This document shows positions 1-64,000 of a stretch of 64,000 nt of DNA, one piece after another; position 1 is the first letter of the stretch, and each line of letters starts with the position of its first letter. The notes beneath the pieces are model-generated. The model was not told the DNA's origin, did no database searches, and was given only the letters and a program-made list of their open reading frames with translations. The position numbers and the translations under genes are program-made. The stretch comes from a virus (Duplodnaviria; Heunggongvirae; Uroviricota; Caudoviricetes), in the IMG/VR virus record IMGVR_UViG_3300029922_002860, one strand, 5' to 3'.

Positions 1-653
1 AGGCTTCCGAAACCTCCCATGTCCTTCACGGACTTTTCCGTTATGATTCCGCGCTCAACAAGTCCCTTGGCGACCTCGGCAACGCGATCTGGCGTCGCAC
101 CGGCGAACCTCGAATCGAAACGGCGGAGGTGCATGTCGCGGACGCGCGCAACGGCCTCGTCCCAATCCTCCCGCCGGCCGAGCTTCTCGTCATAGCGGCA
201 GTAGCGGGAGACGGCCACGTACTCTTGCATCCCGTTCGCCAGGTGCTTCACCGGGCGCATGTCGGCCTGCCCCATGCGATAGCGCATGAAGCACAGGGCC
301 ACGTTCAGCATCCCCGCCTCAGCCACGACCAGCTCGATGGTGTTCTGCGTGTCCTCAACCTTCGGAACAGTGAACTGCCCGAACTTCTCAACGAGTCTGC
401 GCTGCACAGCAACCGCAAGTATCTGCGCCGTCTTGAACCCGTCGGCGTCCAGACCAAACCCCTTGCTAGGGTCGTGGCGGTGCGGATTCTCCGACGACTG
501 GTTTCGCGCTTCGTACATCGCGAGGGCAATGGCCCTGACGATCCGGTTGATGTCCCACTTTGCCAGGGAGCCGTCGCGCTTCTCCACGGATGGGAAAGGG
601 ACGGTGTCGGAGGTGACTGTCAGGGGTGCGTAGTCGGTCGTTGTCGAGGTCAT
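1..653 (-). CDS. ribonucleotide reductase-like protein, N-terminal part (ATP-cone plus class II NrdJ-like region); 3' end beyond window start
   Basis: Open minus-strand frame from the window edge to ATG at about 653, read by eye and not in the ORF track because it has no stop in the window. N-terminus VEKRDGSLAKWDINRIVRAI is ATP-cone-like. RYCRYDEKLGRREDWDEAVARV resembles the NrdJ N-terminal signature. Three upstream motif copies (CCATCTTAT, CCCCCATCTG, CCCCCCATATTTT) at 660-715. Confidence 0.55.
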   Translation of the reverse strand, partial: MTSTTTDYAPLTVTSDTVPFPSVEKRDGSLAKWDINRIVRAIALAMYEARNQSSENPHRHDPSKGFGLDADGFKTAQILAVAVQRRLVEKFGQFTVPKVEDTQNTIELVVAEAGMLNVALCFMRYRMGQADMRPVKHLANGMQEYVAVSRYCRYDEKLGRREDWDEAVARVRDMHLRRFDSRFAGATPDRVAEVAKGLVERGIITEKSVKDMGGFGS

Positions 654-747
654 GTGTGGTTGTTGATAAGATGGCCGAGCCTAAAATATGGGGGGCAGAT
701 GGGGGAGGATCTTGCAGGTGAGGGGTTCCAGAGGTGGTCGAATTGCG

Positions 748-1686
748 TTACAAGGCCGTATCGCTGGGAACCTCTGCCCCTTGGAAATCAGGGACATAGC
801 CGATAAGGCGGGATGCCAAGGCGTTTGCCTGCAAATATCGACCCTCCGCCAATGCCAACCGAACGGCATGGTAGGTGGAGCCGTAGGGCTCGCGGATCGA
901 CGCCTCGATTTCGGGGTCGAGCTTGTAGCCGCAATGGAGACATGCCGGAAGCCCGTAGAGGAGGCAGTTGACCTTCGTGATTTGCACAGCCCGCGGGTCG
1001 AGATCGGCTCCGACGAACTTCACGGCTCCGTAAGCCAACGCCCAGAGGGGAACCAGCGAGGCCATAGCCATAAGCGCGGACCCAGATCCGAGGATGGGTT
1101 CCGTGATGGTGACCGGGTCGTAGTGCTCCATCAGGACCGCCGAGTGCTTGTCCATGTACGAAATCACCGGGGCGTTGGACCAGTCCCCCACCCCCCAGGG
1201 GGCCAACCCCGCGAGGGTCGCGGCCTGGTGCAGGCGTGACATGAGCTGCCCCTCGATGTTCGTCACGGCAATCTGGGCTGACATCAGGCTTAGATGGAAA
1301 GGCGTGGTGAATTGGCCTAGGCCGGGATGTCCGATGAGGTGTGCGTAGGGCAGCCCAAGGACATCGGGGTTGTCCTTTCGATGAAACAGCGGATAGCACG
1401 CGTGGGACCTCATGATCGCGACTGCCTTGGAGTGGACCTGCATCGCCTTGCGACCAATGCCGCTGTCTCGGACCCCCCAGGGATCTTCCCCCTCGCCGGC
1501 CAAGAACGAGGCGACAGTCAATCCACCCCACTTTGCTGGGCGCCGGTAACTGTTGAGCAGGATGCTCTCGGTCAGGTCGAGCAGGGTATGAAAGTCCGAG
1601 ACGCTGCCCCATCCCTCATAAAGCCTGAGCAATGCTGCCGGCGCGTCCGGGTCGGGCTTGCGGGATTGCGGGCGAGGCTGCTTCAC
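748..1686 (-). CDS. hypothetical protein (312 aa, GTG start)
   Basis: GC3-rich ORF. The variant motif CCCCAACTTGCCCAC sits immediately upstream of the GTG. Confidence 0.45.
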   Translation of the reverse strand: MKQPRPQSRKPDPDAPAALLRLYEGWGSVSDFHTLLDLTESILLNSYRRPAKWGGLTVASFLAGEGEDPWGVRDSGIGRKAMQVHSKAVAIMRSHACYPLFHRKDNPDVLGLPYAHLIGHPGLGQFTTPFHLSLMSAQIAVTNIEGQLMSRLHQAATLAGLAPWGVGDWSNAPVISYMDKHSAVLMEHYDPVTITEPILGSGSALMAMASLVPLWALAYGAVKFVGADLDPRAVQITKVNCLLYGLPACLHCGYKLDPEIEASIREPYGSTYHAVRLALAEGRYLQANALASRLIGYVPDFQGAEVPSDTAL

Positions 1687-1754
1687 GTGGGCAAGTTGGG
1701 GCCAACGGGGGATTTGCGGCCCCCTGCCCTTTTGGAGCAGAGGGCCGCGACCCC

Positions 1755-1940
1755 TTAGTTCCTCTTCTCACGCACCCTAGCGTGAGCGAGACTGGACCTG
1801 AGAAGGCGATGTACGCCCACCTCGCCGGAGGAATCTCCGGAAATTGAAGCTGGCAGCCCCATCCGGGAAATCCCGTGGGGAGTGGCACGCATCTTACTGC
1901 CTACCACACCGTCCGCGAAATTGGGGAAAAGGGCTGCCAT
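1755..1940 (-). CDS. small hypothetical protein (61 aa)
   Basis: Internal ATG of ORF 1755..1991 preceded by CCCCCCATAATTATATCC. Confidence 0.4.
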   Translation of the reverse strand: MAALFPNFADGVVGSKMRATPHGISRMGLPASISGDSSGEVGVHRLLRSSLAHARVREKRN

Positions 1941-3382: not shown

Positions 3383-4567
3383 ATGGCCGACCTCGCCGCC
3401 AAACCCTCTGCCCTCCTCGTAATGGACTGCGCGAACGTGAACCGGTCGTTCATGGTCAACGGTGTTCAGGGACTCATCGACTACAGCAGGGTGCCGGGGG
3501 TGATCGAGGGCGCAGCCGGCGTGGATCTCCGGGAAGCAGTGATCTGCGAATACAGCAGCCACAACCCAGAGCATATCGACTACCTGGGGGCGTTGAAGAA
3601 GAGCGGCTACACCGTTGTCGAGCGCCGCTTGCGAGCGGTGACCGGTTCAGACGGGACCCACAAACTCATTTGCAACATGGACGCCGAGGTAGCCAATGAG
3701 GCGCTCCTTCGCTCGCACGCCCACGATGTTGTCGTTATTGGTAGTGGGGATGCCGATTTTGTGCCCCTTGTGCATGCGCTCAGGATGCAGGGCAAGAAGG
3801 TCCTGGTGGCAGCGAACAAACCTGCGATTTCGCGGCAACTCGCAGAGGCCGTGGGCTTCAACCGTGTCATTGAGTTCGGCCAGTACCAGAAAAGTCTGGC
3901 AATGGCCCCCGGTGAGCGCGCCCCATGGCCCAACCACCTCAAGCAAGTCGATAGGGTGCCCGCGCAGGAGATCGGTAGCCCTGGAAAGACGGACTCTGCG
4001 ACCCTCTTGATCGACGGCTTCAATCTCTACAACTCCGCTGGACACGAAGGGTGGAGGATCAACTGGCGAAGGTTGGTGTCCGAGGCTGAAACCAAGTATG
4101 GCAACCTCAGCAACGTGCTCCTGTTCGACCGGGGGCCGAAGCCGGCTGTCGTCAACGATCTCTACGCCCGGCTTCAGGATGAAGGGTGGAGGGTCGAACT
4201 GAAGGAACCGAAGAGCAGCGGGTCATATTCGTGCGTCGTCGAAATGGCCTGTGCGTCGATTGAAGCGGCGCGGCGCGGCGACAGCGTTGTGCTGGCGACC
4301 GGCAGCGGGCATCTCCTCTCAACAGTTCGAAGGCTGAAGGAGAATGGCGTATCCGTGGGGTTGATGGCTCCTGAGTGCGGACTCTCGGGTTTGCTCCACA
4401 AGGAATTCTCTCCCGAGGCATTCTACAGCATTACGAGCCATCGCGAAGAGTTGATTTACCGCAACTCCGGCCCGTCATCAGCCTCGTGGATCGACAGGGG
4501 TTTGCCGCCGCTCCCCTCCCCGCGTTTACCCTCCCGTCCCGGCCAAGGGCAGCAGTCGCCGCAGTAA
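3383..4567 (+). CDS. tandem NYN/LabA-like (PIN-like nuclease fold) domain protein
   Basis: Two repeats of the LabA/NYN pattern (VMDCANV...DVVVIGSGDADFVPLV... and LLIDGFNL...SVVLATGSGHLLSTV). Internal start chosen by the motif; the upstream part of ORF 3155.. overlaps the divergent lipoprotein gene. Confidence 0.6.
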   Translation: MADLAAKPSALLVMDCANVNRSFMVNGVQGLIDYSRVPGVIEGAAGVDLREAVICEYSSHNPEHIDYLGALKKSGYTVVERRLRAVTGSDGTHKLICNMDAEVANEALLRSHAHDVVVIGSGDADFVPLVHALRMQGKKVLVAANKPAISRQLAEAVGFNRVIEFGQYQKSLAMAPGERAPWPNHLKQVDRVPAQEIGSPGKTDSATLLIDGFNLYNSAGHEGWRINWRRLVSEAETKYGNLSNVLLFDRGPKPAVVNDLYARLQDEGWRVELKEPKSSGSYSCVVEMACASIEAARRGDSVVLATGSGHLLSTVRRLKENGVSVGLMAPECGLSGLLHKEFSPEAFYSITSHREELIYRNSGPSSASWIDRGLPPLPSPRLPSRPGQGQQSPQ

Positions 4568-6229: not shown

Positions 6230-7120
6230 TCAGAATCTATGGCCAGGATGCCGAGCCAATGAATTCGTCGGGGTTGGAAGAGGGGTTGACGAGGGTGTTG
6301 CGGAGTACGCAGCAAAGACGCGGTTGAAGATTTCATTCGCAGATTGCCATGCGTCCTGCCCCACCGGCTCCCGTATCCGCTGTGAAAAGTCCATCTCGCC
6401 TCTCTCGATAGAGGCCCCCCGGGGGGTGGTCCGATCATGCCCCCTGCCGGCAATCAGCTCCACAGCGTAGGCCAATTTGAGCCCATTCCATATCCTGGCC
6501 GGCCCCTTGTTCAGAGCATCAATCAGCTCCCGCGCTCTCTCACATCCATCATGCGAGTTGAATTCAGTGCAACAAATAGCCCGCCCCGCCACGTAATGTT
6601 TGAACTGGGCGACTCCTCCATTGGAGACGTTCCCACCAAGGTACCCGAGGGCGCTTGCAGGGTTGAGCTTGTTGAATTGCTCCCGTTCGGAATTCGTCTC
6701 GGTCTCCCACTTCTCCCTAGAAAACGAGGGACCCTCGCGTGCCGAGGGAAAGCCCTCGGCTAAGAATTGTGATTGCTCACAGAGCCCAATGGATCGACGT
6801 GTTCCCATCTCCGTGAATCGGCCGTTTGCGGACGGGTTCTGGAGCAGGTTACCCGCAAGCGTTCTCAGCGCATTCAGGTAGTCCGGGCAGTTCCCGGCAA
6901 GCGCGCAGCGAAGGTAGTCTCGGCGGACCTCGTTTGAGAGCCTGCCTATGGCTCCATCGTCCCCGGACGATTGGAGATCGGCGATATGACAGGCGCTCTC
7001 TCGGTCCTTCCCGCAATGGACAGTCGCAAGCAATTCGTCGTGTTGTTCGGCCTCGACAAACCACGTCCACCCCTCCCGTTGTCCAGGAAAAGGCGTGTGG
7101 CTTTCAGGGCTGGAACTCAT
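6230..7120 (-). CDS. hypothetical protein (296 aa)
   Basis: Long GC3-rich ORF with no recognisable domain. Confidence 0.4.
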   Translation of the reverse strand: MSSSPESHTPFPGQREGWTWFVEAEQHDELLATVHCGKDRESACHIADLQSSGDDGAIGRLSNEVRRDYLRCALAGNCPDYLNALRTLAGNLLQNPSANGRFTEMGTRRSIGLCEQSQFLAEGFPSAREGPSFSREKWETETNSEREQFNKLNPASALGYLGGNVSNGGVAQFKHYVAGRAICCTEFNSHDGCERARELIDALNKGPARIWNGLKLAYAVELIAGRGHDRTTPRGASIERGEMDFSQRIREPVGQDAWQSANEIFNRVFAAYSATPSSTPLPTPTNSLARHPGHRF

Positions 7121-7149
7121 CTAGGAACCGGGCAGGTGTTAATTCCCTA

Positions 7150-7773
7150 TTAGCCAATTGCAGGTCCTACGGCGACAGAAATTTCCGGGGGCGAATCTAC
7201 TTCTCCTGGCGCCCTGTCCAGGACCGCCGGCCTCATGCGGGCCGCCACGGCGCATAGTCGCCGGTCACGCTCAGCTGCAAGCGCTCGCATGAAGAGTTTC
7301 TCCGACTCGATGCCCGCTTTGCGCTCGCCCCACATCATCTGGTCGATGATCGAGGTTAAGTCTTCAAGGGACGCGTTTTTCGGGGCCGACATGACGGCCC
7401 GTGCGATCTCCGCCGCTAACGGTGTTGAGCCGCCCGCGTGGACCATGCCCTGCTCCCGCGAGGACCCCGAGACCACGAAGGTTCGAGGCGACTGAGCGAA
7501 TCGTGCCAGCGCCCTCCAAGGGGCGATGAAGGTGTCGATCTCCTTTGGCAGTTGCAGCTCAACGCACGTGATCGCCTCGGCATAGAGGGCCATGAAGAAC
7601 GGCAACCCGTCTGTCAAAACGTGCTTCCCCCTCAAGTCCTCGGCATGCGGAGTTGAGAACACCGGCGTATCGACGGTGGCGAGGCCGAGATGCACCACGA
7701 GCTGCGCGAAGCCTTCGTACCGGCTTGCGATAATTATCTCCGCAGGAGGCAGAGTGGAAAAGAGTGCTGTCAT
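7150..7773 (-). CDS. hypothetical protein (207 aa)
   Basis: ORF with CCCCATAATCTAAGCACAGCA upstream of its ATG. Confidence 0.5.
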   Translation of the reverse strand: MTALFSTLPPAEIIIASRYEGFAQLVVHLGLATVDTPVFSTPHAEDLRGKHVLTDGLPFFMALYAEAITCVELQLPKEIDTFIAPWRALARFAQSPRTFVVSGSSREQGMVHAGGSTPLAAEIARAVMSAPKNASLEDLTSIIDQMMWGERKAGIESEKLFMRALAAERDRRLCAVAARMRPAVLDRAPGEVDSPPEISVAVGPAIG

Positions 7774-8126
7774 TGCTGTGCTTAGATTATGGGGTGACCG
7801 AGGCAGAGGCTACCGCTGGCTCATCCCGAGAGCCTTTCTGCATGAACGTGTAATGGAACTGTTAATCTCGCCGGCCGCCGGCGGTTTCTCCCTAAGCTCC
7901 GCAATCCTCCCACGTCTTGGTCCGCCAGAATCAAATCCAGTTCGAGCCATTGGGGCGATGGGTGGGCAAAGAAGGAGGCGTCTGGTCGAACGAAAGCCGG
8001 CGGGTGAGAGCCGCAAATCTACCACCCCCCGGGGGGCCTCATTCGAGGGAGCGGCACCGTGAAAGAGGAAGGCTAACGAGTGATTGTCGCCCCTCCTCCC
8101 CCACCCCTTCGGCTTGAATCCGGACA

Positions 8127-8612
8127 TTGAAAGCCGATTATGATGGGGTGCCACGAACACCCAGAGCCACTCGTGAAGCCACCCGCCGGCGGCTGGCGAA
8201 CTTCCGTGCGCGAAAGAAGTCCCAGGGCCTTGTGGAGATCCGGGCGCTTGTGCCGGCTTCGGTCGTCGCGGAGCTGGAACTGGCAGCCCTGTCCCTGCCC
8301 GACGGTGCGAAGGAATCGGCGATCCGTCTGGCGCTGGAAGGGTACGTCGAGAAGCACGCCCAAGAGGCCAAGCAGGTGCGGCTACTTATCTCGAAGTATT
8401 GGTCTCAGGTAATGGAATACAAGGCCCGGGTCCCTACCCCGCTCCGCGGAAACGCCCCCGTCCGGATAAAGGAACGATGGTACACCCCGGATGAGGCCAC
8501 GAAACTCCTCGAAATCCGGACCCTGATCGAGGGCTTCTTCAAGGCCCGTGGGGTCCCCCACCCTTACGAAGCTGCCTGCGGGGTCTTCAACAGGCTTTCG
8601 GTGGCTAAGTGA
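8127..8612 (+). CDS. putative ribbon-helix-helix-like DNA-binding protein (start uncertain)
   Basis: RRRLANFRARKKSQGLVEIRALVPASVV resembles an Arc/MetJ/CopG beta-strand motif. Lies next to the iteron region and parA. Confidence 0.4.
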   Translation: MKADYDGVPRTPRATREATRRRLANFRARKKSQGLVEIRALVPASVVAELELAALSLPDGAKESAIRLALEGYVEKHAQEAKQVRLLISKYWSQVMEYKARVPTPLRGNAPVRIKERWYTPDEATKLLEIRTLIEGFFKARGVPHPYEAACGVFNRLSVAK

Positions 8613-8774
8613 TTTGAACGAAACGGCTTCGTGCCATCCCTAGTTTGATCTCAGCCGAAGTCCGTGCGTTACGCGTAACGCATCAAAACGTCCATAAATT
8701 TCGGTCGATTCTGGAAGATTAGCCGGCCCTCAGAAAAGCCGAAAATGCGACGGAAACGTATTGTGCGCGAGAAA

Positions 8775-8900
8775 TGCGCGATTATCGCGCGTAATCTGGT
8801 TCGGTCACGGTATTGGTAATGGTAACGGTAACAGTTCGTGTTACCGTTACGGTAAAAGTAACGGATAAAGTCGAGGTTTTGGTAACGGTAACAGCTGCCG
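8775..8900. repeat. iteron / inverted-repeat cluster (GGTAACGGTAAC units) in an AT-richer intergenic region upstream of parA
   Basis: GGTAACGGTAACAG occurs twice. A perfect inverted repeat GGTAACGGTAAC-agttcgtg-GTTACCGTTACC (read from 8821-8852). CGCGAT-TA-TCGCG palindrome nearby. Confidence 0.55.
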
Positions 8901-9000
8901 TCATTGAATCTGCGCGAATACTGCGCGATTTCTGCATTGACATTTGATTGTGATGCGGTGCAGAATTAGCGCAGAAAGCAAACCTCCGTTCGTCGAACCT

Positions 9001-9516
9001 ATGAAAGATCCACTACTCACGCCGCCGCAGCCCGCGGGAAAGGTCGCAAAAGGCCGTCCACCGCATGGCAGATACCGGCTGATCCGAAGCAAGTTTGAGG
9101 AGATCGCGAAGGCCAGAGATGTCCTCCGCCTGTCGGACCGACTGGCGGCAAAGAGGGTAGGGCTCAGGGGCGCTCGCGAGTACGCGGAAGCCTACGATCT
9201 CCTGAAAAAGCATGGGGCGAGCATCATGGCCCAGAACGATTGGGAGGGGGTCGAGGCAGTCATCTACGCTCGGTTTCCCCGCTACCGAAACGACAAGAAA
9301 TTTCACGAGATTCAGGCTGAATACAATGACCCACGGCCCCGGTTGGGTCTCGCGGATGCGGGCATGGAACCGCCGCGGCAGGGTGGGGGGGAGAAGCCAT
9401 CTGGCGCCACGCCAGATGCCCCGGCAACGCCCCTTGTGAGGCCGCAAGCATCTACTCCGCAACGAAGCCCTTGGGGCGGGAAAGACCCAGGCAGCCGCGC
9501 CTTCCCCAAGACCTAA
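9001..9516 (+). CDS. hypothetical protein (start at internal Met)
   Basis: ORF 8944.. with a TTGACA-N17-CAGAAT-like sequence upstream. No recognisable domain. Confidence 0.35.
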   Translation: MKDPLLTPPQPAGKVAKGRPPHGRYRLIRSKFEEIAKARDVLRLSDRLAAKRVGLRGAREYAEAYDLLKKHGASIMAQNDWEGVEAVIYARFPRYRNDKKFHEIQAEYNDPRPRLGLADAGMEPPRQGGGEKPSGATPDAPATPLVRPQASTPQRSPWGGKDPGSRAFPKT

Positions 9517-9528
9517 ACACCCCTATCC

Positions 9529-53860: not shown

Positions 53861-53867
53861 AATCGTG

Positions 53868-53940: not shown

Positions 53941-53946
53941 GAAAAT

Positions 53947-54033: not shown

Positions 54034-54036
54034 AAA

Positions 54037-54111
54037 ATCGGGGCGACAGGGTTCGAACCTGCGACCTCCTGGTCCCAAACCAGGCGCTCTACCAGACTAA
54101 GCTACACCCCG
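54037..54111 (-). tRNA. tRNA-Pro(TGG)
   Basis: Anticodon loop TTTGGGA. Confidence 0.6.
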
Positions 54112-54116
54112 GAAAA

Positions 54117-54192
54117 TGGCAGGAACGGAGGGAGTCGAACCCCCAACCAACGGTTTTGGAGACCGCTACTCTACCAATTGAGCTACGTTCCT
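54117..54192 (-). tRNA. tRNA-Trp(CCA)
   Basis: Anticodon loop CTCCAAA. Confidence 0.6.
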
Positions 54193-54203
54193 ATCTCTGA
54201 AAT

Positions 54204-54282
54204 TGGGTGCAGAGACTGGATTTCAACCAGCGATCTCCACCTTATGAGGGTGGCGAGGACAAGCAGGCTCCTCCACTCTGCA
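54204..54282 (-). tRNA. tRNA-Met(CAT), atypical D loop and T loop
   Basis: Anticodon stem-loop CCACC-CTCATAA-GGTGG. Confidence 0.45.
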
Positions 54283-54335
54283 ACAAAGCTGTGTTCGTCG
54301 TCGCGAGAGAAAAGCTCGCGCCCGACTCTGGAAAA

Positions 54336-54482
54336 TGTTCGCGACGGGAATCGAACCCGCGCCACCCCTTGCGGGGGTTTTCCGTCGCAGCATTATCCGA
54401 CGCAGTTGCCTAGGCATGCGTCAGTGCCGCGCCGGCCGCTAGGCTACGTGAACCCGCAGTGCTGCCACTACACCACGCGAAC
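54336..54482 (-). ncRNA. tRNA-like locus with a roughly 70-nt insertion in the anticodon region (intron-containing tRNA or disrupted pseudogene; possible Val(CAC))
   Basis: Perfect acceptor stem GTTCGCG/CGCGAAC, a Gln-like D arm and a canonical T arm are spread over 147 nt. Insertion begins after ...GCGGG-TTCACG. Confidence 0.4.
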
Positions 54483-54490
54483 GAAAATCG

Positions 54491-54562
54491 TGGACCGAAG
54501 GGGGATCGAACCCCTGACCTCATCGTTGCGAACGACGCGCTCTTCCACTGAGCTACCGGCCC
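54491..54562 (-). tRNA. tRNA-Ala(CGC)
   Basis: G3:U70 pair. Anticodon loop TTCGCAA. Confidence 0.55.
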
Positions 54563-54569
54563 ATCGAAA

Positions 54570-54646
54570 TGGTGGTCTCGGGTGGGTTCGAACCACCGAC
54601 CCCGCGCTTATCAAGCGCGTGCTCTAACCAGCTGAGCTACGGGACC
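54570..54646 (-). tRNA. tRNA-Ile(GAT)
   Basis: Anticodon loop TTGATAA. Confidence 0.6.
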
Positions 54647-54655
54647 ATAAGTGGA

Positions 54656-54729
54656 TGGAGCGGTAGCCGGGAATCGAACCCGGGACACCTGTTTGGAAAA
54701 CAGAGGTTTTGCCACTAAACTACAACCGC
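54656..54729 (-). tRNA. tRNA-Gly(TCC)
   Basis: Anticodon loop TTTCCAA. Confidence 0.55.
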
Positions 54730-54734
54730 GAGAT

Positions 54735-54812
54735 TGGCGGTAACGGGTGGGTTCGAACCACCGACACGCGGCTTTTCAGACCGCTGCTCTACCAATACTG
54801 AGCTACGTCACC
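54735..54812 (-). tRNA. tRNA-Phe(GAA)
   Basis: Anticodon loop CTGAAAA. Confidence 0.6.
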
Positions 54813-54830
54813 AAAAATGGTTCTGCGAAA

Positions 54831-54917
54831 TGGTGCGTCAGGAAGGACTCGGACCCTCGAAGCCCCGAAGGGCGGCGCGTTTACAGCGCGCTGCATTTGC
54901 CGCTCTGCCACTGACGC
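54831..54917 (-). tRNA. tRNA-Tyr(GTA), type II
   Basis: Anticodon loop CTGTAAA. Long variable arm. Confidence 0.55.
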
Positions 54918-54924
54918 GTGAAAG

Positions 54925-55001
54925 TGGGGGAACTGGGTGGACTTGAACCACCGACATTCGCCTTATGAGGGCGCTCCTCTGCCAACTGAGGTACAGTTCC
55001 A
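54925..55001 (-). tRNA. tRNA-Met(CAT) second copy (elongator, initiator or Ile2 not distinguishable)
   Basis: Anticodon loop CTCATAA. Three G-C pairs in the anticodon stem. Confidence 0.5.
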
Positions 55002-55018
55002 TGCGTATCCAGAATTGT

Positions 55019-55090
55019 GGGACACCTGGGACTCGAACCCAGAACCTACTGCTTAAAAGGCAGCAGCTCTGCCATTGAGCTAGTGACCCA
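55019..55090 (-). tRNA. tRNA-Lys(TTT)
   Basis: Anticodon loop CTTTTAA. Confidence 0.55.
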
Positions 55091-55362
55091 TACGAAAGTG
55101 TCTCCGCCTCGGCCATGAATGCAGGCCCGTGGGGCTCAACCGCGCTTCGCATCGCGGGCACTCTGATACCAACCGACGGCACAAGCCGACGCGTTTAGCC
55201 CTGCCTGCCGCGCGAAGCCGCAGCGCAGACTGAACGGAGATTCTTGAAAGTGTCCGATGGGTCCCAGGTCGCTCCAGGATGCTCAGGTTCTCACCCGCAT
55301 GTGACGCAAGGCTCCACCGCCTTGGACGCCGCTCCCAGCCCTCGATGCCCCACCGGAAATTA

Positions 55363-55436
55363 AGCGGTAAGAGGGACTCGAACCCTCGGCCTCCACGTTG
55401 GCAACGTGGCGCTCTAACCGACTGAGCTACTACCGC
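55363..55436 (-). tRNA. tRNA-Gly(GCC)
   Basis: Anticodon loop TTGCCAA. Confidence 0.6.
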
Positions 55437-55552
55437 GAGAGAGATTATTCCTGCACGCTACGCTTCGGCTTCGTGCTTGCCGGGTACCACAGCACCAGGG
55501 GACCCGACGGAGTTAAGTGCCCGCTGTCTCGGGTCAACGATAGCAGGGAGAA

Positions 55553-55629
55553 TGGCGCGAACGGCAGGGTTCGAACCTGCAACTTCCTGATCCGTAGTCA
55601 GGGGATCTATCCAGTTGATCTACGTTCGC
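55553..55629 (-). tRNA. tRNA-Arg(ACG)
   Basis: Anticodon loop CTACGGA. Confidence 0.6.
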
Positions 55630-55639
55630 GTGAAAGTGT

Positions 55640-55710
55640 CGCCCCCAGCCAGAATCGGACTGGCGCGCCGCGCGTGAAAGGCGCGTGTCCTGCCACTAGA
55701 CGATGAGGGC
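55640..55710 (-). tRNA. tRNA-Glu(TTC), first gene of the array; extended acceptor pairing with flanks
   Basis: Anticodon loop CTTTCAC. Glu-type D arm. Leader GTC pairs with trailer GAC. Confidence 0.5.
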
Positions 55711-56010
55711 GACATGAAAGTGAAAAGCTGGGTGGCGGGCACGAATGCCCCTTACCGCGCGAGCGCGCGACCACCCAGCTCTTGCCATCGCCTGGCCACG
55801 AATGTGGCTGGAGCCTCACGGAGTTTAGGCCGATTTACGCTCCGGCGCTGGCTTCTATCTGAAGAAAAGAACCACCTGCCGTCCCTCTCGGCTTTCGCCG
55901 GATTGGACCCGCCCCCAGTGTGGGAAGGCGTCTTCGCTGATTCGTGGGGCTCAGCTGTGAAGCCACTTGGAAATTGGAAAGGTGTAGGACCCGGTCCGGA
56001 AGTGGCTTGG

Positions 56011-56039
56011 CGTCTGGCCAACAAAAAACCCACTTCCGG
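56011..56039 (-). terminator. strong rho-independent terminator upstream of the tRNA array
   Basis: Perfect 9-bp stem CCCACTTCC-gggg-GGAAGTGGG followed by a T6GTT run on the minus strand. Confidence 0.7.
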
Positions 56040-56333
56040 GGTGGAAGTGGGTCGGCTCAGTGTGCGGTTGCTTTCCGCCCTAGCTGGCTTTCCCACCTCC
56101 TGTGACGCCTGCGCTATCCAGATTAAACTGATAACCTTGCTTTGAGGTTATCCTCGGGATGGCGGCCCACATTGGGCACAGCGTCAGCGAGCGTCCTTCG
56201 GGGCTTGTCCCGAGGGCCGGCGCTAATTTCGGCTGTGAATGGAGGGTCATTTGCGAAGATGTGTTATGACTGTCTGAGTTGCTGAACGGATGATGAAGGA
56301 GAATTTTTAAGAGGGGTGCTAAAGAAAGATGGA

Positions 56334-56366
56334 AAATAAAAATCCCACCGTCGGATGAGGGTGGGT
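56334..56366 (-). terminator. rho-independent terminator after small ORF 56395..56577
   Basis: CCCACC-loop-GGTGGG hairpin followed by ATTTTTATTTT on the minus strand. Confidence 0.6.
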
Positions 56367-56394
56367 CGGGTCGAACGGGACGAAGAACTGATCG

Positions 56395-56577
56395 TCAACG
56401 ATTCAATCGTAACCCACCCTTGCTCGGTTCCAGATCGAGCCCGCGGTTTCCCGCGAAGGTTGTTGCGGTCGGGATAGAGCCCTGCCGCAGCCAACCGCTC
56501 AGGCGGCTTGGCACTAACGTGCGGTATTGTGAGGAGGGCTTCATGGAAAGGTGTGTGCTTGTTACGATATGAACCAT
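56395..56577 (-). CDS. small ORF (60 aa) or noncoding transcript
   Basis: CGCCATCTTGGAGCGTC motif, then a roughly 45-nt AT-rich leader, the ORF, and a terminator. Confidence 0.25.
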   Translation of the reverse strand: MVHIVTSTHLSMKPSSQYRTLVPSRLSGWLRQGSIPTATTFAGNRGLDLEPSKGGLRLNR

Positions 56578-56687
56578 CGGCAAATGTTCCGGAGATTCAA
56601 GGAGTTTGTTGGATATTTGTTATGACGCTCCAAGATGGCGTGAGGTTACAGCGTATCACGAAATGAATTACCGAGGCGCCCGCCATC

Positions 56688-56981
56688 TCACTGGTTCACT
56701 GTCAATGCCGAGGCCCCAGGGATGGCAATAGCGGGAGATGGGATGGATTCCGTAAGCAGAGCCCGGGCACCAGATGGGGTTTCTGCGGCGATCTTGACCA
56801 TGAGCCTGTGCAGCTGCGCATACGTGACAGGCTGCTCGACCGCGGCCTGGGTTGGGTTCGAGGGGGACGGTGAGGCGCATGCAGTGAGCAAAAGCGCGGC
56901 AAGCGCTATCGACCCGGCGAGCTTCCGGCGCCGGGCTACAATACTTGAGAGAGGGGTGTTCATATCGAATGGGTACACCAT
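56688..56981 (-). CDS. small lipoprotein (97 aa)
   Basis: Lipobox LLTAC. Leaderless arrangement: CACCCCATAATT is directly followed by ATG. Confidence 0.5.
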   Translation of the reverse strand: MVYPFDMNTPLSSIVARRRKLAGSIALAALLLTACASPSPSNPTQAAVEQPVTYAQLHRLMVKIAAETPSGARALLTESIPSPAIAIPGASALTVNQ

Positions 56982-56995
56982 AATTATGGGGTGCC
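56982..56995 (-). promoter_or_regulatory. conserved upstream motif CACCCCATAATT (class A) with zero spacer to the ATG
   Basis: Motif 3' edge coincides with the ATG of gene 56688..56981. Confidence 0.5.
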
Positions 56996-57526
56996 GCCGG
57001 CCTCAGGGGCCGAGAGGGAGTGAATGCGCCCGACCGCCAAATCGGGTACGTGCCACTCAGGGTAGCCGAACACTGCCGGAATATGGGTCCGCCTCTCCGC
57101 AATCGCAGCCTCCCATCGGTGATTTCCGTCCTGACGGTGCCAGGACCAGTCGCTTGTCGCCGCACCACAGGGGCTCGCAAGGATCGTGATGGGTGGGAGG
57201 GAGCCTCCCTTCCTTAGCATGTTCCGGTACTTGCGGACGCCGCGGCGATACGCTCCGCCTTCCCCAGGCTCCATGGCCACGGGCAGTGGCAGTTCCACAA
57301 CCGGCGAGAACAAAAAGCCGTCCGGATCAAATGGCAGGGCGAATGAGTCGCGGCCATTGAAGTGGAACTCCGAGAACCACGCATCGGAGTTCTCATACGG
57401 GCTCCACTCACCCATAGGAGGAAGAGTTGCGAGAGCGCAGCGGTAGCGCTCGGGCAGCGTGGGCGCCTGGTGAATCTGCCGGCAGGGGAGGGGTGTCTGG
57501 TTGCCCACAAGGGCGCTCTGGTCCAT
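56984..57526 (-). CDS. hypothetical protein (180 aa)
   Basis: CACCAGCTTGGTCT then ATG. Confidence 0.45.
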   Translation of the reverse strand: MDQSALVGNQTPLPCRQIHQAPTLPERYRCALATLPPMGEWSPYENSDAWFSEFHFNGRDSFALPFDPDGFLFSPVVELPLPVAMEPGEGGAYRRGVRKYRNMLRKGGSLPPITILASPCGAATSDWSWHRQDGNHRWEAAIAERRTHIPAVFGYPEWHVPDLAVGRIHSLSAPEAGGTP

Positions 57527-57598
57527 AGACCAAGCTGGTGACCCACGAATTTGCTCATTTTACCCACCCCCCGGGGGGCCTCCTCAGAGGGAAAACCT

Positions 57599-58217: not shown

Positions 58218-58279
58218 ACCACCCTTAGTTCCTTGTTCGTTAGTTCCACCCTTAGTGCAGATAGAAACCACCCTTAGTC
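58218..58279 (+). repeat. three direct repeats of CCACCCTTAGT upstream of, and overlapping, the start of the LexA-like regulator gene
   Basis: Copies at about 58219, 58247 and 58268. CCCATAATCTTCACG lies just upstream. Confidence 0.5.
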
Positions 58280-58734
58280 CCAAGGCCCTGCCACTCCAAC
58301 AGGCCAAGCTCCTGCGTTATGTAGCGGAAACGCATCAAACGCTCAGAGTTCCTCCGTCCCAGACCGACATGGCGCGGTACCTAGGAGTGCGGAATGTCCA
58401 AAACTACCTCACCCCCCTCATTAAGAAGGGCTATCTAGCCCGCGTGCCTGGTGGGCCAAAGGGTCGTTCCAGAGGAGTCGTAACGACGGGCAAGGGCGAT
58501 GACTGGGTCGAAGCGGTCAAAGATCAGGCGCTCCTCTCATTAAGAAGCCGCTTCGTGCAGTTCAAGCCGGATGGTCTCCGGGGGCCGAAGCAGCGGGTGC
58601 TATTCAGGGCTCCGAAGGTCGAGGCGGGAACTGTCGAGGCCGACGAAGATTCTGTGGCTCGACTCCGCCCATCTGAAAGCGACCAAAGCGCGCACCCAAG
58701 CCTGCCACTTGAGGAAGGAGCGTTACGCTCGTGA
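58255..58734 (+). CDS. LexA-N-terminal-like winged-helix transcriptional regulator (no S24 peptidase domain)
   Basis: LPLQQAKLLRYVAETHQTLRVPPSQTDMARYLGVRNVQNYLTPLIKKGYLARV matches the LexA DNA-binding domain pattern. Confidence 0.55.
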   Translation: MQIETTLSPKALPLQQAKLLRYVAETHQTLRVPPSQTDMARYLGVRNVQNYLTPLIKKGYLARVPGGPKGRSRGVVTTGKGDDWVEAVKDQALLSLRSRFVQFKPDGLRGPKQRVLFRAPKVEAGTVEADEDSVARLRPSESDQSAHPSLPLEEGALRS

Positions 58735-60197
58735 ACGAATTCCTGAACATCGGGGCTCTCATCAATTCGAGCGCTGTGGGCCGTTCCATGGCTCAGCCGG
58801 AATTTGAGTTTGCCCAGGAATACGGAGTTCGGAAGTTCTACGCGCCTCGGGAGTGGTCCTCGGTCGCGGGCATGTTTTCGGTTGCCGGATCGTCCGAACG
58901 ACTGACGGTACGGAAGGCCGGAGCGAAGACACCTTCCGGCCCTGAAGAGAAGGTCACACGCAAACGGGCTCGCGTCATCAAAGTCGTCACCGCCGACCTG
59001 GAGGACTCCTACGGTCGCTACCGTCTGGAGATTGGGGGCTTCGATCCGTTTAGAGGAGGGACACCGTTGGAGAGCGCCTCGGTCGCACTGGAGAACCCTG
59101 TTCTCGACGTGGAGCTGCTCCATCTGCTCGGCGTCCTGATGTACCTTTGCCAAGTTTCGCCCGGCGAAAGACCGCAGCCTCGAAACATTGCATGGGCTGA
59201 GGCTGTCCGGATCTTCGCGGGTAACTGCGCCGACGGCAATGCGCCTGGAAGCTACGACAGGGCAAAGATGAAGAAGCTCTTCCTCCGGTTGACCAACGTG
59301 CGCTGGGCGATTGGTCGCCCTTCAGGCGGTGGTCAGACTATCTGGGGGAAGTCGGAGCGAATCTTCACACACGACGCAATCACTCCAAAGACTGTGGCTC
59401 GCATGGTAAAGGGCCGCACAAAGCGGACAGTGTTCAACACCCTGGACGGGCTGTTGTTCAACGAGCGGTTCATAGAGGCTCTGCTCCCCTCGTGGGATGT
59501 TGAAAAGGAGAAGGGGAAAGCCGAGAGACAATTGCAGGAGATTTCCCTCGATGGCCTAGCCTGCGGCCGCAGTCCGCTCGGCAAACTCTTCTTCCTGTAT
59601 TTTCCGAAATTGGCTGTCGGGTCGAACGGACGGCCTCCGTTTGAAATAGGCGTTACCAAGCTGTGCGAGCAATTGGGGGTGCCAATGAAAGCCGGCCACG
59701 CGAGACGGGTTTTCCTTGGGCACAAGCTAGACGGAACTAGCGGCATTCTCCACGACTTCGATGGTGCGCCACTTCTGCGTGGAGTTCTTCGCCTGGGTGC
59801 TCGCGAAGGAAAGAATGACCTCCTCGCGCTAGGCTGGGCTGATGGATACCGCAGGGTTTCCGACAAGGAAATGGCGGACAAGTCGCTGCTTCGCGCCTTC
59901 ACTAAGCTCTCCGCTGATGAGTTTGCCAAGCTCACCCGTCCGCTACCCGCATTGAGCATGCACGAAAAGGCGCTCCTCGGTGCCGCCGAGATCGGTTCGC
60001 CGACTTCCGGCTTCAGGGTAGAGATCCTCGAAGCGAGAGCGCTGATGGGCAGGGAGAATTTCGAGAGCTTCCTGGTCGATATGGACGCTGCGCGCTACCG
60101 GCGAGAGGGCGGCGCGTACACGGAGGGTCCAGAGGCCCGGCTGCGCCATTACATGCGCAAGCGGGTTGGCGAGCTATTCGGATCTGCCGGCCGGTAG
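58731..60197 (+). CDS. putative replication initiator (Rep-like) protein
   Basis: Its start overlaps the regulator stop (GTGA). It lies adjacent to an iteron array. No Walker motif. Assignment is by context only. Confidence 0.4.
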   Translation: MNEFLNIGALINSSAVGRSMAQPEFEFAQEYGVRKFYAPREWSSVAGMFSVAGSSERLTVRKAGAKTPSGPEEKVTRKRARVIKVVTADLEDSYGRYRLEIGGFDPFRGGTPLESASVALENPVLDVELLHLLGVLMYLCQVSPGERPQPRNIAWAEAVRIFAGNCADGNAPGSYDRAKMKKLFLRLTNVRWAIGRPSGGGQTIWGKSERIFTHDAITPKTVARMVKGRTKRTVFNTLDGLLFNERFIEALLPSWDVEKEKGKAERQLQEISLDGLACGRSPLGKLFFLYFPKLAVGSNGRPPFEIGVTKLCEQLGVPMKAGHARRVFLGHKLDGTSGILHDFDGAPLLRGVLRLGAREGKNDLLALGWADGYRRVSDKEMADKSLLRAFTKLSADEFAKLTRPLPALSMHEKALLGAAEIGSPTSGFRVEILEARALMGRENFESFLVDMDAARYRREGGAYTEGPEARLRHYMRKRVGELFGSAGR

Positions 60198-60704: not shown

Positions 60705-60800
60705 CCCTTTTCGGTAATTCTGGCCCAGGGTGGGTAAATCTGGACCTGGGGTGGGTAAATCTGGCCGGCCCGAGGGCGATCTGGCCGAGGGTGGGTAAAT
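60705..60800. repeat. iteron array: three to four direct repeats of GGGTGGGTAAATCTGG(A/C)C
   Basis: Repeats spaced about 21 bp apart; candidate replication origin. Confidence 0.6.
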
Positions 60801-60943
60801 CTGGACACGCCCCAGAGGGGGAATCGCTCTGCTCATCCCCTCACGTCCGCATCTAAACAATCATTGCCAACATGGGGGTGGCATCCTTTCGAGCTTAAAT
60901 CGACCCAGACCGGGCGGCGAGCGGGCTATGAATGGTAGGCACT

Positions 60944-61017
60944 TAATGACCCATAGCCCAAGGCTGGTAGGCTCTTCTTGACCTGAAGGGGAAAATGGTA
61001 GGCACTTATTGACCCTA
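60944..61017 (+). repeat. two 20-bp direct repeats AATGGTAGGCACTTA(A/T)TGACCC plus a TGGTAGGC half-site immediately upstream of ATG 61017
   Basis: Read by eye; candidate operator sites. Confidence 0.45.
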
Positions 61018-61919: not shown

Positions 61920-61952
61920 GCCCCAAGATGGGGCGGTCGTGACGACCTGGAT

Positions 61953-63083
61953 CTATGCGACGCTCAAATTTAGGGTTCGCTCGGGAGCTACAGAGCCCTG
62001 CAATTTCACGAGTTCGGCAGAGAAGCCGTCGGCGTTGCTGCGCTCGCATGCTTCGGTGATCCGCAGGAGCACAAGCGCCGCATCCATCGTCGTGAGGCGC
62101 TCGTCAATTTCGCCTTGTTCGGCCAGAGCGAAGAATGCCTCGATCTCGTCAGCGACTCTGTTGTTCGCAGAGTTCGTGTCGCAGAGCACAGATTGGTCGG
62201 ACGCCCTGATGACCGTCAGGTGGTCGCAGCGCTTGCCGTCAGAGATCGCGTCAAACTGGATCTCGAAGAGGTACACGTCTCCGGCAGCCTGGAACGCGCC
62301 GTTCACGACGCGGTGCTGTGACACCCGCAGAAAAGAGCTGCGAAGCGTGGCGATGGTGTTCGGCATCCCCACGGGCTGAATTACTGACGAAACGCCCGAT
62401 GACGGGGATGCGGGAAAGAACGCGTCGGCGCTGCTCGCGAGGCTTTGACTGGCAATGTCCACATAGGGGACAAATCCGACGCGAGCAGAAATCGTGAGCC
62501 CGGAAGGGCGGTAAGGCCGGAGAAGATCGACGATGATCCCCATGCCGTGAACTGATTCGTCGGCCAAGGCCCCCGCTGTGGGGCGCTTGTCGCCTGTTCG
62601 GTTCTTACCCCATTCCACGTGGATCTCCCTGGGCTCGGCGTGGAAGCCGGACATCAGCGCCTTGAGTTGGGAAACGGACCGTGAGAACCGCATCAGGTAG
62701 GCTACGTGGATGGAGGATGACGGCACCATTTCGGCCTCCGCCTCCAGTTGCTCCGCCTCGCTGGCATTCAGCACCACCGGTTTCTCGACAAACATGCGCT
62801 TGCATCCCATGCGAAGCAGATCCCGGAGGTTCCCAAAATGTGCCGGCGTGTTCGAAAGGACAAAGGCAATGTCTGGGACGCACCCGGTCCCATCGAGGCT
62901 GCGGATAACTGTCGCCCCCGGGTAGTCACGCTGCAACCGAAGCACCTTTGCAGGGTCTAGCTCGACCAGAATCAAGGGCGCGCTAGTGTGGGAGCGAATC
63001 AGGGGGATGTAGGTTGCGGCCATGACGCCGCCGGCGCCGACGATCACCACGGGCGTTTGCTTGTCGGTAGAGGATGCGTTCAT
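61953..63083 (-). CDS. Gfo/Idh/MocA-family NAD(P)-dependent oxidoreductase
   Basis: Rossmann N-terminus PVVIVGAGGVMAATYIPLI and an EKP motif. Start at an internal Met; the upstream Arg/Gly-rich extension was rejected. Confidence 0.55.
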   Translation of the reverse strand: MNASSTDKQTPVVIVGAGGVMAATYIPLIRSHTSAPLILVELDPAKVLRLQRDYPGATVIRSLDGTGCVPDIAFVLSNTPAHFGNLRDLLRMGCKRMFVEKPVVLNASEAEQLEAEAEMVPSSSIHVAYLMRFSRSVSQLKALMSGFHAEPREIHVEWGKNRTGDKRPTAGALADESVHGMGIIVDLLRPYRPSGLTISARVGFVPYVDIASQSLASSADAFFPASPSSGVSSVIQPVGMPNTIATLRSSFLRVSQHRVVNGAFQAAGDVYLFEIQFDAISDGKRCDHLTVIRASDQSVLCDTNSANNRVADEIEAFFALAEQGEIDERLTTMDAALVLLRITEACERSNADGFSAELVKLQGSVAPERTLNLSVA

Positions 63084-63094
63084 GGCGAAAGTTC

Positions 63095-64000
63095 CTAGGC
63101 GTGCGGAACGGCCTCGGGGGCGGGCTCGGATTCGGCTTCGGCGACCCTGTCGGGAATTTGTGCAGGCGCTCCGGACTCGTGGTGGGCAGCCTTCGGGTGG
63201 TGTCGCTGCTGAAGTTCCATGTCGATGGGGACGGTTCCCAGAGCCTCCTCCATGGAGGTAAGCCCCATCTTCACCTTGAGCATCGAGTCCTGGTGGAGCG
63301 TCTTCATTCCGTTGCGCATGCAGATCCCCTTTAACGTGGCCGTGTCCGCTTCTTTGTTGATCGCCGAGGTCAGTTCCTCGCTTGCCGTTAGCAACTCGTG
63401 GATGCCCACGCGCCCCTTGTAGCCGGACGAACCGCAAGCGGGGCAGCCTTTTGCCCGCGCCTTGAACACCTTGCCGGACCACCCAACCGCCCGCTCCATG
63501 ATTTGCGCCGCATTGCCTTCGAGCTGGACCTCCTCCTTGCACACCTTGCAGAGACGGCGCATGAGGCGCTGGGAACAGACGCAGATGAGAGATGAGGAGA
63601 TCATGAACGGCTCAATCCCCATGTCCGTAAGGCGGGCCACCGTGCTCGGGGCGTCGTTCGTGTGAAGCGTCGAGAGGAGCAAGTGCCCCGTGAGAGCCGC
63701 CTCGATGGCGATGCCCGCGGTCTCCTGGTCGCGGATCTCACCCACAAGAATCACGTCGGGGTCCTGTCGCAGGAAGGCGCGCAAGGCGCTGGCGAAGGTG
63801 AGGCCGATCTGCCGATGCATCTGCATCTGGTCCAGATTGGGGAGCGTGTACTCGATGGGGTCCTCGGCGGTGCGGATCACCATGTCCGGTGTGTTGATTT
63901 CGCCGAGGGCCGAGTAAAGCGTCATCGACTTGCCGGAGCCAGTAGGCCCGCAATGAAGAATCATCCCGTAAGGCTGGCGGATGCAGTCACGGTATGTGGC
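63095..64000 (-). CDS. GspE/PilB-family type II/IV secretion ATPase, C-terminal part (start beyond window end)
   Basis: Walker [10 protein letters not shown], Asp box, His box (TLHTND) and a C-terminal Zn-binding CxxC pair. Confidence 0.8.

Follow-up and report, generated by a model that had tools for sequence, protein, structure and literature searches.

Gene content of the window

The stretch analysed here, positions 1 to 64,000 of IMG/VR record IMGVR_UViG_3300029922_002860 and hereafter called the window, encodes a predicted replication initiator with iteron-like arrays, a ParA-type partition cassette, the DNA polymerase III alpha subunit DnaE and 44 tRNA genes, together with many genes of no known family (Table 1); the partition role of the cassette is a prediction. 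It belongs to an element whose longest contig measures 260,824 bp, of which about 142 kb was read, comprising the window, its flanks and a region that encodes Cas9. Genes were scanned with Pfam and PHROGs, and RNAs with ARAGORN and Rfam. The GC content is uniform at ~60% across the window, in which a rough gene call gave ~75 protein genes at a coding density of ~81%. A Pfam match was obtained for ~25 of these, leaving roughly two thirds without any Pfam family, and we infer roughly 300 mostly orphan genes for the element as a whole. We conclude, with a probability of about 0.58, that the window makes up roughly one quarter of an extrachromosomal element that is clonal, no shorter than 261 kb and maintained in a plasmid-like way. 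We would describe this element, whose host is probably an uncultured Opitutae-like bacterium (Verrucomicrobiota), as a megaplasmid or a giant chromid-like replicon, and as neither a virus nor a main chromosome.

A preliminary description, made from the sequence alone, had proposed a giant non-chromosomal replicon, namely a huge phage, phage-plasmid or megaplasmid, and had stated that phage and plasmid could not be told apart from the window by itself. The proposal is supported by flanks of like kind, by contigs of at most 260,824 bp in dozens of samples, by DnaE identities of 46–50% and by the lack of rRNA: no Rfam family except tRNA was found in the window and 123 kb of other loci. Pfam and PHROGs matches also bear out the DnaE, the start of a ribonucleotide reductase (RNR), the RecJ, the ParA and the three sigma factors that had been named, as do Pfam matches for the HNH, PIN-PhoH and NYN nucleases, and the pilus or secretion ATPases correspond to two T2SSE-family matches. 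The proposed ParB-like nuclease is plausible only, with a DGQHR motif and phrog_5931 in its favour but no Pfam match at E ≤ 0.001. By Pfam and PHROGs the window contains no housekeeping metabolic operon and no capsid or terminase gene, as had been stated.

Predicted replication and partition functions

The predicted initiator is encoded behind a winged-helix gene in one operon. Three 15-nt direct repeats (ACCACCCTTAGTNCC) at 58218–58281, with a spacing of 22–27 nt, straddle the start of the winged-helix gene and are likely an auto-regulatory operator. An intergenic region of ~560 bp holds the two iteron-like arrays, ~0.5–0.8 kb downstream of the initiator gene: the first (60713–60806) consists of ~4.6 copies of a 20–21-nt unit (GGGTGGGTAAATCTGGMC) and the second (60931–61015) of three 22-nt copies (AATGGTAGGCACTTAWTGACCC). 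The preliminary description had named a Rep protein with iterons. The iterons are real, but the protein itself has no match in Pfam, PHROGs, the plasmid, phage and IMG/VR collections or PDB sequences, and its backing comes from homologs and from its predicted fold. The family comprises just 23 members among 1.84 billion representatives, with relatives at 32–43% identity; among 22 members, three match Pfam Rep3_N and two match RPA. The AlphaFold model has a predicted local distance difference test score of 79.8 and a predicted template modelling score of 0.68, and RctB domains 2–3 were its sole Foldseek matches in PDB with E ≤ 0.001 (5.4e-06, probability 1.00). Membership of the winged-helix Rep/RctB structural class is thus supported indirectly, through the model and the homologs.

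Within the putative partition cassette, ParA is flanked by ORFs (open reading frames) of 171 and 149 aa that fall in no known family. The repeat cluster upstream of the operon (GTAACGGTAAC, TGCGCGA-type units) is a candidate centromere or operator, and a ParB_N protein is encoded ~13 kb to the right of the window. In the mechanism that we propose, the initiator would bind the iterons, open the origin and load a replisome made partly of the element's own subunits, and ParA would segregate the element copies. Besides DnaE, the element encodes DnaN, SSB, RecJ, a 5'-3' exonuclease, a Rad52-like protein, a class II RNR and ThyX. The RNR, the entire gene of which is present in locus L083, shares 38–44% identity with annotated phage NrdJ genes.

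The tRNA array

About 43 tRNAs had been counted in the preliminary description, which agrees with 43 from ARAGORN and 44 from Rfam. The 43 ARAGORN tRNAs comprise 40 distinct anticodons plus three CAT genes, with no further duplicate, and serve all 20 amino acids. As a decoding set, the array is complete and non-redundant, able to read all codons.

The 44th tRNA (54336–54482, minus strand), missed by ARAGORN, scored 42.5 bits with Rfam. Its cloverleaf is complete and has the anticodon CAC (Val); just two of the common anticodons, this one included, are lacking from the rest of the array. The gene is interrupted after position 37/38, in the anticodon loop, by a 73-nt insert. This insert is far below the size of group I introns, and its site is typical of archaeal and eukaryal tRNA introns.

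Table 1. Features of the window and, where a locus is named, of other contigs
Position	Strand	Feature	Support
1..653	-	Class II, B12-dependent RNR, N-terminal part (ATP-cone) of 830 aa; continues left of window	Weak Pfam ATP-cone, RNR-II_ins_dom, Ribonuc_red_lgC
3383..4567	+	NYN-domain protein, 394 aa, putative RNase	Pfam NYN E = 3.9e-19; gene limits as in locus L083
5107..5568	+	Prepilin-type protein with N-terminal methylation motif	Pfam N_methyl, 22.1 bits against cutoff 21.2
6405..57588	.	Private repeat CCCCCCGGGGGGCCTC-N4-GA, six dispersed copies	Starts 6405, 8025, 14669, 17980, 35453, 57567; 0 expected
8764..8975	.	Direct and inverted repeat cluster upstream of parA operon; candidate centromere or operator	
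9001..10658	+	Putative partition cassette: 171-aa ORF, small ParA 9529-10212 (227 aa), 149-aa coiled-coil protein 10209-10658	Pfam CbiA/MipZ/AAA_31; phrog_164 ParA-like
10680..12497	+	RecJ-like single-strand DNA exonuclease	Pfam DHH 1.3e-17, DHHA1 1.8e-13; phrog_2484 1.5e-62
12494..13336	-	Sigma-70 family factor no. 1	Pfam Sigma70_r4 6.5e-09; phrog_351
15499..16539	+	AAA_24 / Sak4-like ATPase	Pfam AAA_24 9.8e-09; phrog_124 weak
16812..17942	+	PilT-like T2SSE-family ATPase, 376 aa	Pfam T2SSE 4.2e-27
21827..24849	-	AAA_5 (MoxR/CobS-like) ATPase 21827-23266 and adjoining 521-aa partner of no family	Pfam AAA_5; phrog_249, phrog_16448
26601..30158	-	DnaE, full-length DNA polymerase III alpha (PHP, polymerase, finger, HhH domains)	Pfam DNA_pol3_alpha 1.2e-84
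31529..33495	-	SPFH/Band 7 lipoprotein and radical SAM protein	Pfam, PHROGs
33773..34714	-	Candidate ParB-like nuclease, 313 aa, DGQHR motif	phrog_5931 6.6e-37; motif read from translation
35085..36629	-	PIN-PhoH fusion	Pfam PhoH 1.1e-44, PIN_4 1.1e-31; in-frame C6G6 private repeat copy at 35453
37648..38910	-	Tyrosine recombinase (Phage_integrase family)	Pfam, PHROGs
40097..41927	-	Response-regulator protein 40097-41161 and sigma factor no. 2 41250-41927	Pfam Response_reg, Sigma70_r4_2
43836..44966	-	DUF4314 protein and ART-PolyVal ADP-ribosyltransferase-type protein (polyvalent-protein modules)	Pfam
45345..48113	+	Hybrid PAS histidine kinase with receiver domain	Pfam
48171..49568	-	Sigma factor no. 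3 (regions 3 and 4) 48171-48887 and HNH endonuclease 48918-49568	Pfam, PHROGs
49619..55711	-	44 tRNA genes	ARAGORN 43; Rfam adds 44th
58218..60197	+	Initiator operon: LexA-type winged-helix gene 58255-58734, then predicted 488-aa RctB/Rep3-like initiator 58731-60197	Pfam (winged helix), repeat search, homologs, AlphaFold/Foldseek
60713..61015	.	Two iteron-like arrays, candidate origin	Repeat search
61953-63083	-	GFO/IDH/MocA oxidoreductase	Pfam
63095-64000	-	PilB/GspE-like ATPase, C-terminal half of 617 aa; runs on right of window	T2SSE 2e-123 on full protein (locus L090)
Locus L223, 11621-16706 (outside window, same 260,824-bp contig)		Type II CRISPR-Cas: Cas9 1076 aa, Cas1, Cas2, array	HNH_4, RuvC_III (Cas9)
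Locus L179, 6841-10047		Type IV coupling protein, 1047-1068 aa	TraG-D_C 28.2 bits against 22; T4SS-DNA_transf 23.6 against 20.1 (Pfam gathering scores)

Start-proximal motifs and a dispersed repeat

Two short motifs recur directly ahead of start codons. Class 1 (CCATCTTG, on the coding strand; for example at 13343–13351, 21506–21514, 23271–23279 and 44080–44088, and also in loci L186 and L239) precedes an ORF beginning with ATG in 26 of its 40 copies on the window's element, and in 27 of 36 on co-occurring contigs that encode a type IV coupling protein (T4CP; see below). Its modal gap is 4 nt, and it is present even within gaps of 15–20 nt between co-directional genes. Class 2, CCCCATA(A/C/G)TT (abbreviated CCCCATAMTT), precedes an ORF in 24/39 copies on the element and 6/9 on the T4CP contigs, with a modal gap of 5–6 nt. 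The genes behind it include those for DnaE, the PilT-like ATPase, the NYN protein, the ParB_N protein and a sigma factor, and it was also seen in loci L227, L229 and L231. In 1.47 Mb of chromosomal control loci, a motif stood before an ORF in 3 of 91 copies (class 1) and 4 of 179 (class 2); rates were similarly low in 1.2 Mb of IMG/VR loci, and no case was found in the phage targeted by the element's Cas9 system (see below). The private promoter motif of the preliminary description is therefore real and element-specific, located 4–7 nt from start codons and divided into two classes.

The cores CATAAT, CATACT and CATCTT retain the invariant A and T of the -10 hexamer and end 5–7 nt ahead of the A of ATG, and the CATAAT of class 2 is a near-consensus -10 hexamer. 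No conserved sequence was found upstream of the motifs. ATG is the start codon of 133 of 137 genes, and a Shine-Dalgarno-like sequence lies ahead of only 12 of these 137. Judged from sequence, the motifs are best read as -10-only promoters that yield leaderless mRNAs, a reading that fits the near absence of Shine-Dalgarno sequences, and the two classes are perhaps read by different sigma factors, of which the element encodes at least four. Transcription from the two private -10-like classes (CCATCTTG and CCCCATAMTT), 4–7 nt ahead of ATG, would then produce leaderless mRNAs, and the tRNAs and sigma factors would make expression of the element's genes partly independent of the host. A role of the motif as a Shine-Dalgarno substitute was rejected, as inspection revealed no complementarity to the standard 3' end of 16S rRNA. 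Motif-like sequences between the tRNA genes were also dismissed as promoters, since encoded 3'-CCA ends with T-rich spacers behind them account for these sequences.

In addition to the six dispersed copies of the private repeat, CCCCCGGGGG is present at 11 sites in the window. Copies of the repeat are often followed by a short hairpin and some lie in frame within genes, such as the insertion in the PhoH domain at 35453. By its sequence it resembles a miniature palindromic element. Used as a probe, the repeat retrieved 49 loci from JGI metagenomes; the 18-base sequence had zero matches among the 2.9 million viral contigs of IMG/VR, a collection that does include contigs from adjacent sample ids, as seen through the spacer matches described below.

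Flanking genes, CRISPR-Cas9 and its target

Both flanks were inspected for core chromosomal genes in which the window might be embedded, and more genes of the same kind were found instead. To the left lie the rest of the RNR gene and genes for an RNA ligase, an LPD1 polyvalent-type protein, a HATPase_c protein, a 5'-3' exonuclease and an S1/P1 nuclease. To the right are encoded the PilB-like ATPase, a helicase, DnaN, a 1154-aa orphan protein, the ParB_N protein, SSB and the Rad52-like protein. A third stretch of the same 260,824-bp contig contains ~35 small orphan genes, a fourth sigma factor, ThyX, Cas9, Cas1 and Cas2, and past the CRISPR locus (the acronym denotes short palindromic repeats that are clustered and regularly interspaced) follow a FadL-type outer-membrane protein, IS605 TnpA/TnpB, sensor kinases, a ketoacyl synthase and a PEMT/ICMT methyltransferase. 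The IS605 genes tnpA and tnpB (OrfB_IS605 / Cas12f1-like TNB; locus L233, 12589–14450) are inserted beside the Cas9 region, and a class 1 motif precedes the start of tnpB with a gap of 6 nt.

The CRISPR array consists of nine 37-nt repeats and eight spacers of ~30 nt, and is identical in three samples. Spacers 1, 2 and 3 match the tailed phage IMGVR_UViG_3300031524_000747 at 30/30, 30/30 and 29/30 positions, respectively; spacers 4 and 6 have no match in IMG/VR. Cas9 would thus protect the pair of host and element against this phage. On the targeted phage, PHROGs identified the large terminase subunit TerL (1e-96), a portal protein, a major head protein and a tape measure protein, which means that hallmark phage genes are detectable in this habitat and GC range.

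Co-occurring contigs with a coupling protein

A second family of contigs, met among the loci retrieved with the repeat, reaches 158,410 bp (Ga0311362_10000089) in a sample whose assembly has the window's element broken up into shorter contigs. This family encodes the T4CP (Table 1), which has relatives at 35–68% identity, as well as a UvrD-type helicase, a PLD-family protein, two orphan C5 DNA methylases, a guanylate kinase and IS1595 (loci L186/L239). The contigs also contain a string of ~45 tiny co-directional genes. This motif-dense string was considered as a phage morphogenesis module and rejected when its genes proved to be methylases, the guanylate kinase and tiny orphans, and no head, packaging or tail family was found in ~45 kb of these contigs. 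The tetranucleotide correlation between the T4CP contigs and the element is 0.987, compared with 0.974 between the two halves of the window and 0.75–0.89 for chromosomal loci. The T4CP contigs carry the private repeat and the start motifs, yet no gene homologous to those of the element. This combination is compatible with a single replicon whose assembly fell into two parts, or with two replicons that have long shared a host. A third, rarer family (loci L194/L175, up to 103,134 bp) has the same private repeat and a composition correlation of 0.93–0.94, has no genes in common with the other two, and could be host DNA or another element.

The coupling protein and the tyrosine recombinase speak for an integrative conjugative or otherwise integrated element that lies in the host chromosome and was assembled apart from it through strain variation at its borders. 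Arrays of tRNA genes, too, reportedly occur on some integrated elements, such as ICEAfe1 of Acidithiobacillus. The recombinase gene is, however, situated in the middle of the element and not terminally beside an attachment site, and no contig seen contains a junction with host DNA. As the element, at 261 kb or more, also has a predicted autonomous initiator with iterons, a putative partition cassette and replisome genes of its own, we regard integration as very improbable.

Population and likely host

By exact-sequence lookup in JGI, ENA and Logan assemblies, the window proteins were each located on 23–29 contigs, the longest of which measure 260,824 bp (JGI) and 239,169 bp (Logan/ENA); none exceeds 1 Mb. 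Several independent contigs are 100% identical to the window over tens of kb, and because this identity extends across independent assemblies, we conclude that one clonal population was sampled many times. One contig of the element in JGI sample 3300029913 covers window positions -2.1k to 41.0k and another covers 41.0k to 112.7k; the end of the first and the start of the second both lie only a few bases from ~40,990, a position in the response-regulator gene at 40097–41161. This points to a recurrent assembly break, perhaps caused by strain variation or a repeat. A megablast search with positions 1–25000 of the window gave no match in phage or plasmid collections.

Every named relative of the DnaE belongs to the Opitutae (Lacunisphaera, Opitutus, Didemnitutus and Opitutaceae), at 46–50% identity, and four unnamed metagenomic lineages reach 65–69%. 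Beyond dnaE itself, no synteny exists between the window and 80 chromosomal dnaE loci from GTDB. Given the affiliation of these relatives and the lack of synteny, the region belongs to no known chromosome, and an uncultured Opitutae-like Verrucomicrobium is the likely host. We presume the habitat to be peat, from the JGI sample series and from the palsa and SPRUCE names of metagenome-assembled genomes among the DnaE relatives.

That genes for DnaE, DnaN, SSB and ThyX occur together with a full tRNA set raises the question of a cellular chromosome, either an essential secondary chromosome or a piece of the main chromosome of a divergent, poorly assembled bacterium, in which these genes, the RNR and the tRNAs would be the only copies. 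The closest structural match of the initiator, RctB, initiates a secondary chromosome, the three contig families (261, 158 and 103 kb) have a common repeat and similar composition, which would be expected of pieces of a single genome, and the IS605 TnpB gene bears the same start motif as the other genes. Nevertheless, the ~142 kb and the 45 kb of T4CP contigs yielded no gene for rRNA, ribosomal proteins, aminoacyl-tRNA synthetases or central metabolism, and the large proportion of window genes without a Pfam family also speaks against a chromosome. The HNH endonuclease, polyvalent-protein modules, orphan methylases and T4CP are markers of mobile elements, the tRNA genes are confined to one array instead of being dispersed, and the contigs end at 261 kb in at least seven samples despite their 100% clonality. 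A chromosomal origin is therefore quite improbable.

Phage or plasmid

No capsid, portal, terminase or tail family was detected with Pfam and PHROGs in the ~142 kb of window, flanks and Cas9 region, which extends the preliminary remark on structural and packaging genes beyond the window, and a PHROGs search with the ten largest unannotated proteins of the flanks and Cas9 region gave no structural family. The comparison with phages and plasmids by shared proteins, which had been suggested in the preliminary description, was run with six concatenated replication proteins; it returned single-gene matches only, at 26–44% identity in both collections, and does not discriminate between them. The relatives of the DnaE in IMG/VR are all at ≤42% identity, and their loci lack synteny with the window. 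Kinship with a known huge phage was dropped for this reason, as was identity with a known chromosome in view of the 80 GTDB loci.

Several observations weigh against a plasmid-type element. About 120 kb of the 261-kb contig lies outside the stretch read, and profile searches frequently miss the structural genes of jumbo phages. A large part of the cargo is of phage type, including the Sak4-like AAA_24 ATPase, RecJ, PhoH, HNH, the CobS-like AAA_5 ATPase, the Rad52-like annealing protein, SSB, RNA ligase and the LPD1 and other polyvalent-protein modules, and there are long runs of dozens of tiny orphan genes, each with a uniform private upstream motif that resembles phage promoter classes. The RctB-like fold of the initiator was obtained with modest TM-scores (0.31/0.49). 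The T4CP contigs are never on one contig with the window's genes and could belong to another replicon, and neither a relaxase nor a VirB4 turned up among the scanned proteins and Pfam lists of the loci read from both contig families. For these last two reasons we put conjugation forward as a hypothesis: horizontal transfer may use the T4CP of the co-occurring contigs together with the PilB, PilT and pilin genes, and this is the weakest step of the proposed mechanism.

The phage-type genes would be accounted for by a huge temperate phage or phage-plasmid that is maintained at low copy number by Rep/iterons and ParA, like P1, N15 and SSU5, and whose structural genes are located in the unread ~120 kb or are too divergent to be recognized. 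Numerous tRNAs, several sigma factors and CRISPR-Cas are all reportedly known from huge phages, and the best single-gene matches of the RNR and PhoH include phages. We nonetheless consider such a phage unlikely. The structural and packaging families absent from ~142 kb scored strongly on the control phage targeted by Cas9, IMG/VR holds adjacent sample ids but no repeat-bearing fragment, and its DnaE loci are not syntenic with the window. Cas1 and Cas2 are present, and the element carries cell-like cargo: the FadL-type outer-membrane protein, the ketoacyl synthase of fatty-acid synthesis, PEMT/ICMT, several two-component systems and IS605. The evidence leans towards a plasmid-type replicon over a virus because of the initiator with its iterons, the ParA cassette with its repeats, the absence of the private repeat from IMG/VR and the detectable hallmarks of the control phage.

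Relation to known giant replicons

Giant extrachromosomal elements (Borgs, Inocles and tRNA-array megaplasmids) turn up habitat by habitat, and their replication, their spread and the expression of their orphan genes are mostly unexplained. No sequence relative of the present element as a whole was found in any collection searched. The huge phages of Al-Shayeb et al. (2020) reportedly exceed 200 kb and encode tens of tRNAs, sigma factors, phage-targeting CRISPR-Cas systems, PhoH, RNR and many orphan genes. Their defining features are capsid, portal, terminase and tail genes, none of which was found in the ~142 kb read here, and IMG/VR contains no repeat-bearing fragment of the element. Lytic jumbo phages do not typically have a plasmid-type initiator and iterons.

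The predicted initiator shares the fold of RctB domains 2–3, relatives with Rep3_N or RPA matches, and direct repeats of 20–22 nt beside its gene with RctB/ori2 of Vibrio cholerae chromosome 2 and with Rep_3 iteron plasmids. It differs in having no detectable sequence similarity to RctB or any solved initiator, and its repeats lie downstream without a defined ori2-like layout. The initiator is absent from the plasmid collection, in which the six replication proteins gave single-gene matches of ≤43% identity.

The Pseudomonas megaplasmids pMPPla107 and pBASL58 have 54 and 44 tRNA loci, respectively, and pBASL58 has tRNAs for 19 of the 20 amino acids and a complete CRISPR-Cas system (PMC6482414). 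Like the present element, they are very large plasmids with mostly hypothetical genes, many tRNAs and housekeeping-type replication and repair genes (PMC6482414). They are, however, proteobacterial and 0.9–1 Mb in size, and their tRNA sets are redundant and incomplete, whereas here only CAT is repeated. The CRISPR system of pBASL58 is of type I (cas3/csy) and not of type II (Cas9), and no private start-proximal promoter system has been described for either plasmid. Tandem tRNA arrays on large plasmids are also found in Anabaena PCC 7120, where a trn operon of 26 tRNA genes supplements the complete chromosomal set (PMC10272220), and in Bifidobacterium, with a long array on pMP7017 (PMC10832533). 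Unlike that of PCC 7120, the array described here is complete, non-redundant and located beside replisome genes.

The Inocles of oral Streptococcus are elements of 245–368 kb that were discovered in metagenomes and are classed as neither phage nor classical plasmid, with a DNA polymerase III alpha subunit, RecJ, an RpoS-type sigma factor, tRNAs and insertion sequences (PMC12340149). The similar size range and the combination of DnaE, RecJ and a sigma factor recall our element; in the text searched, tRNA is mentioned only as a count that differs between groups (PMC12340149). The Inocles differ in their Firmicute host, their GC content of 24–32% and their gene repertoire, and no relationship is expected.

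Sequence identities of 65–69% for the DnaE lineages, 32–43% for the initiator relatives and 35–68% for the T4CP relatives suggest a family of such elements. We tentatively raise the possibility that no other member has yet been described of the class to which the element belongs, a separate class of giant mobile replicons from Verrucomicrobia of soil and peat, neither phage nor conventional plasmid, of ~261 kb, or at least 420 kb with the T4CP contigs. Members would combine a replisome core, nucleotide synthesis, complete tRNAs and at least four sigma factors with leaderless mRNAs from two -10-only promoter classes, which would insulate expression from the host. Should the T4CP contigs lie on the same molecule, it would rank with the larger conjugative elements that are known from outside the Proteobacteria. 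The element supplies handles for further work, i.e. a predicted origin and initiator, a partition locus, a Cas9 array with a phage target and a defined pair of start motifs. The spacer target ties the element and the phage to the same host, and the complete, non-redundant tRNA set beside DnaE, DnaN and SSB bears on the boundary between megaplasmids and secondary chromosomes. Compared with the known systems, the element is distinguished by a tRNA set that is complete, non-redundant and arranged in one array, a replisome core beside a predicted RctB-like initiator, a Cas9 system with a known target and a dual start-motif system.

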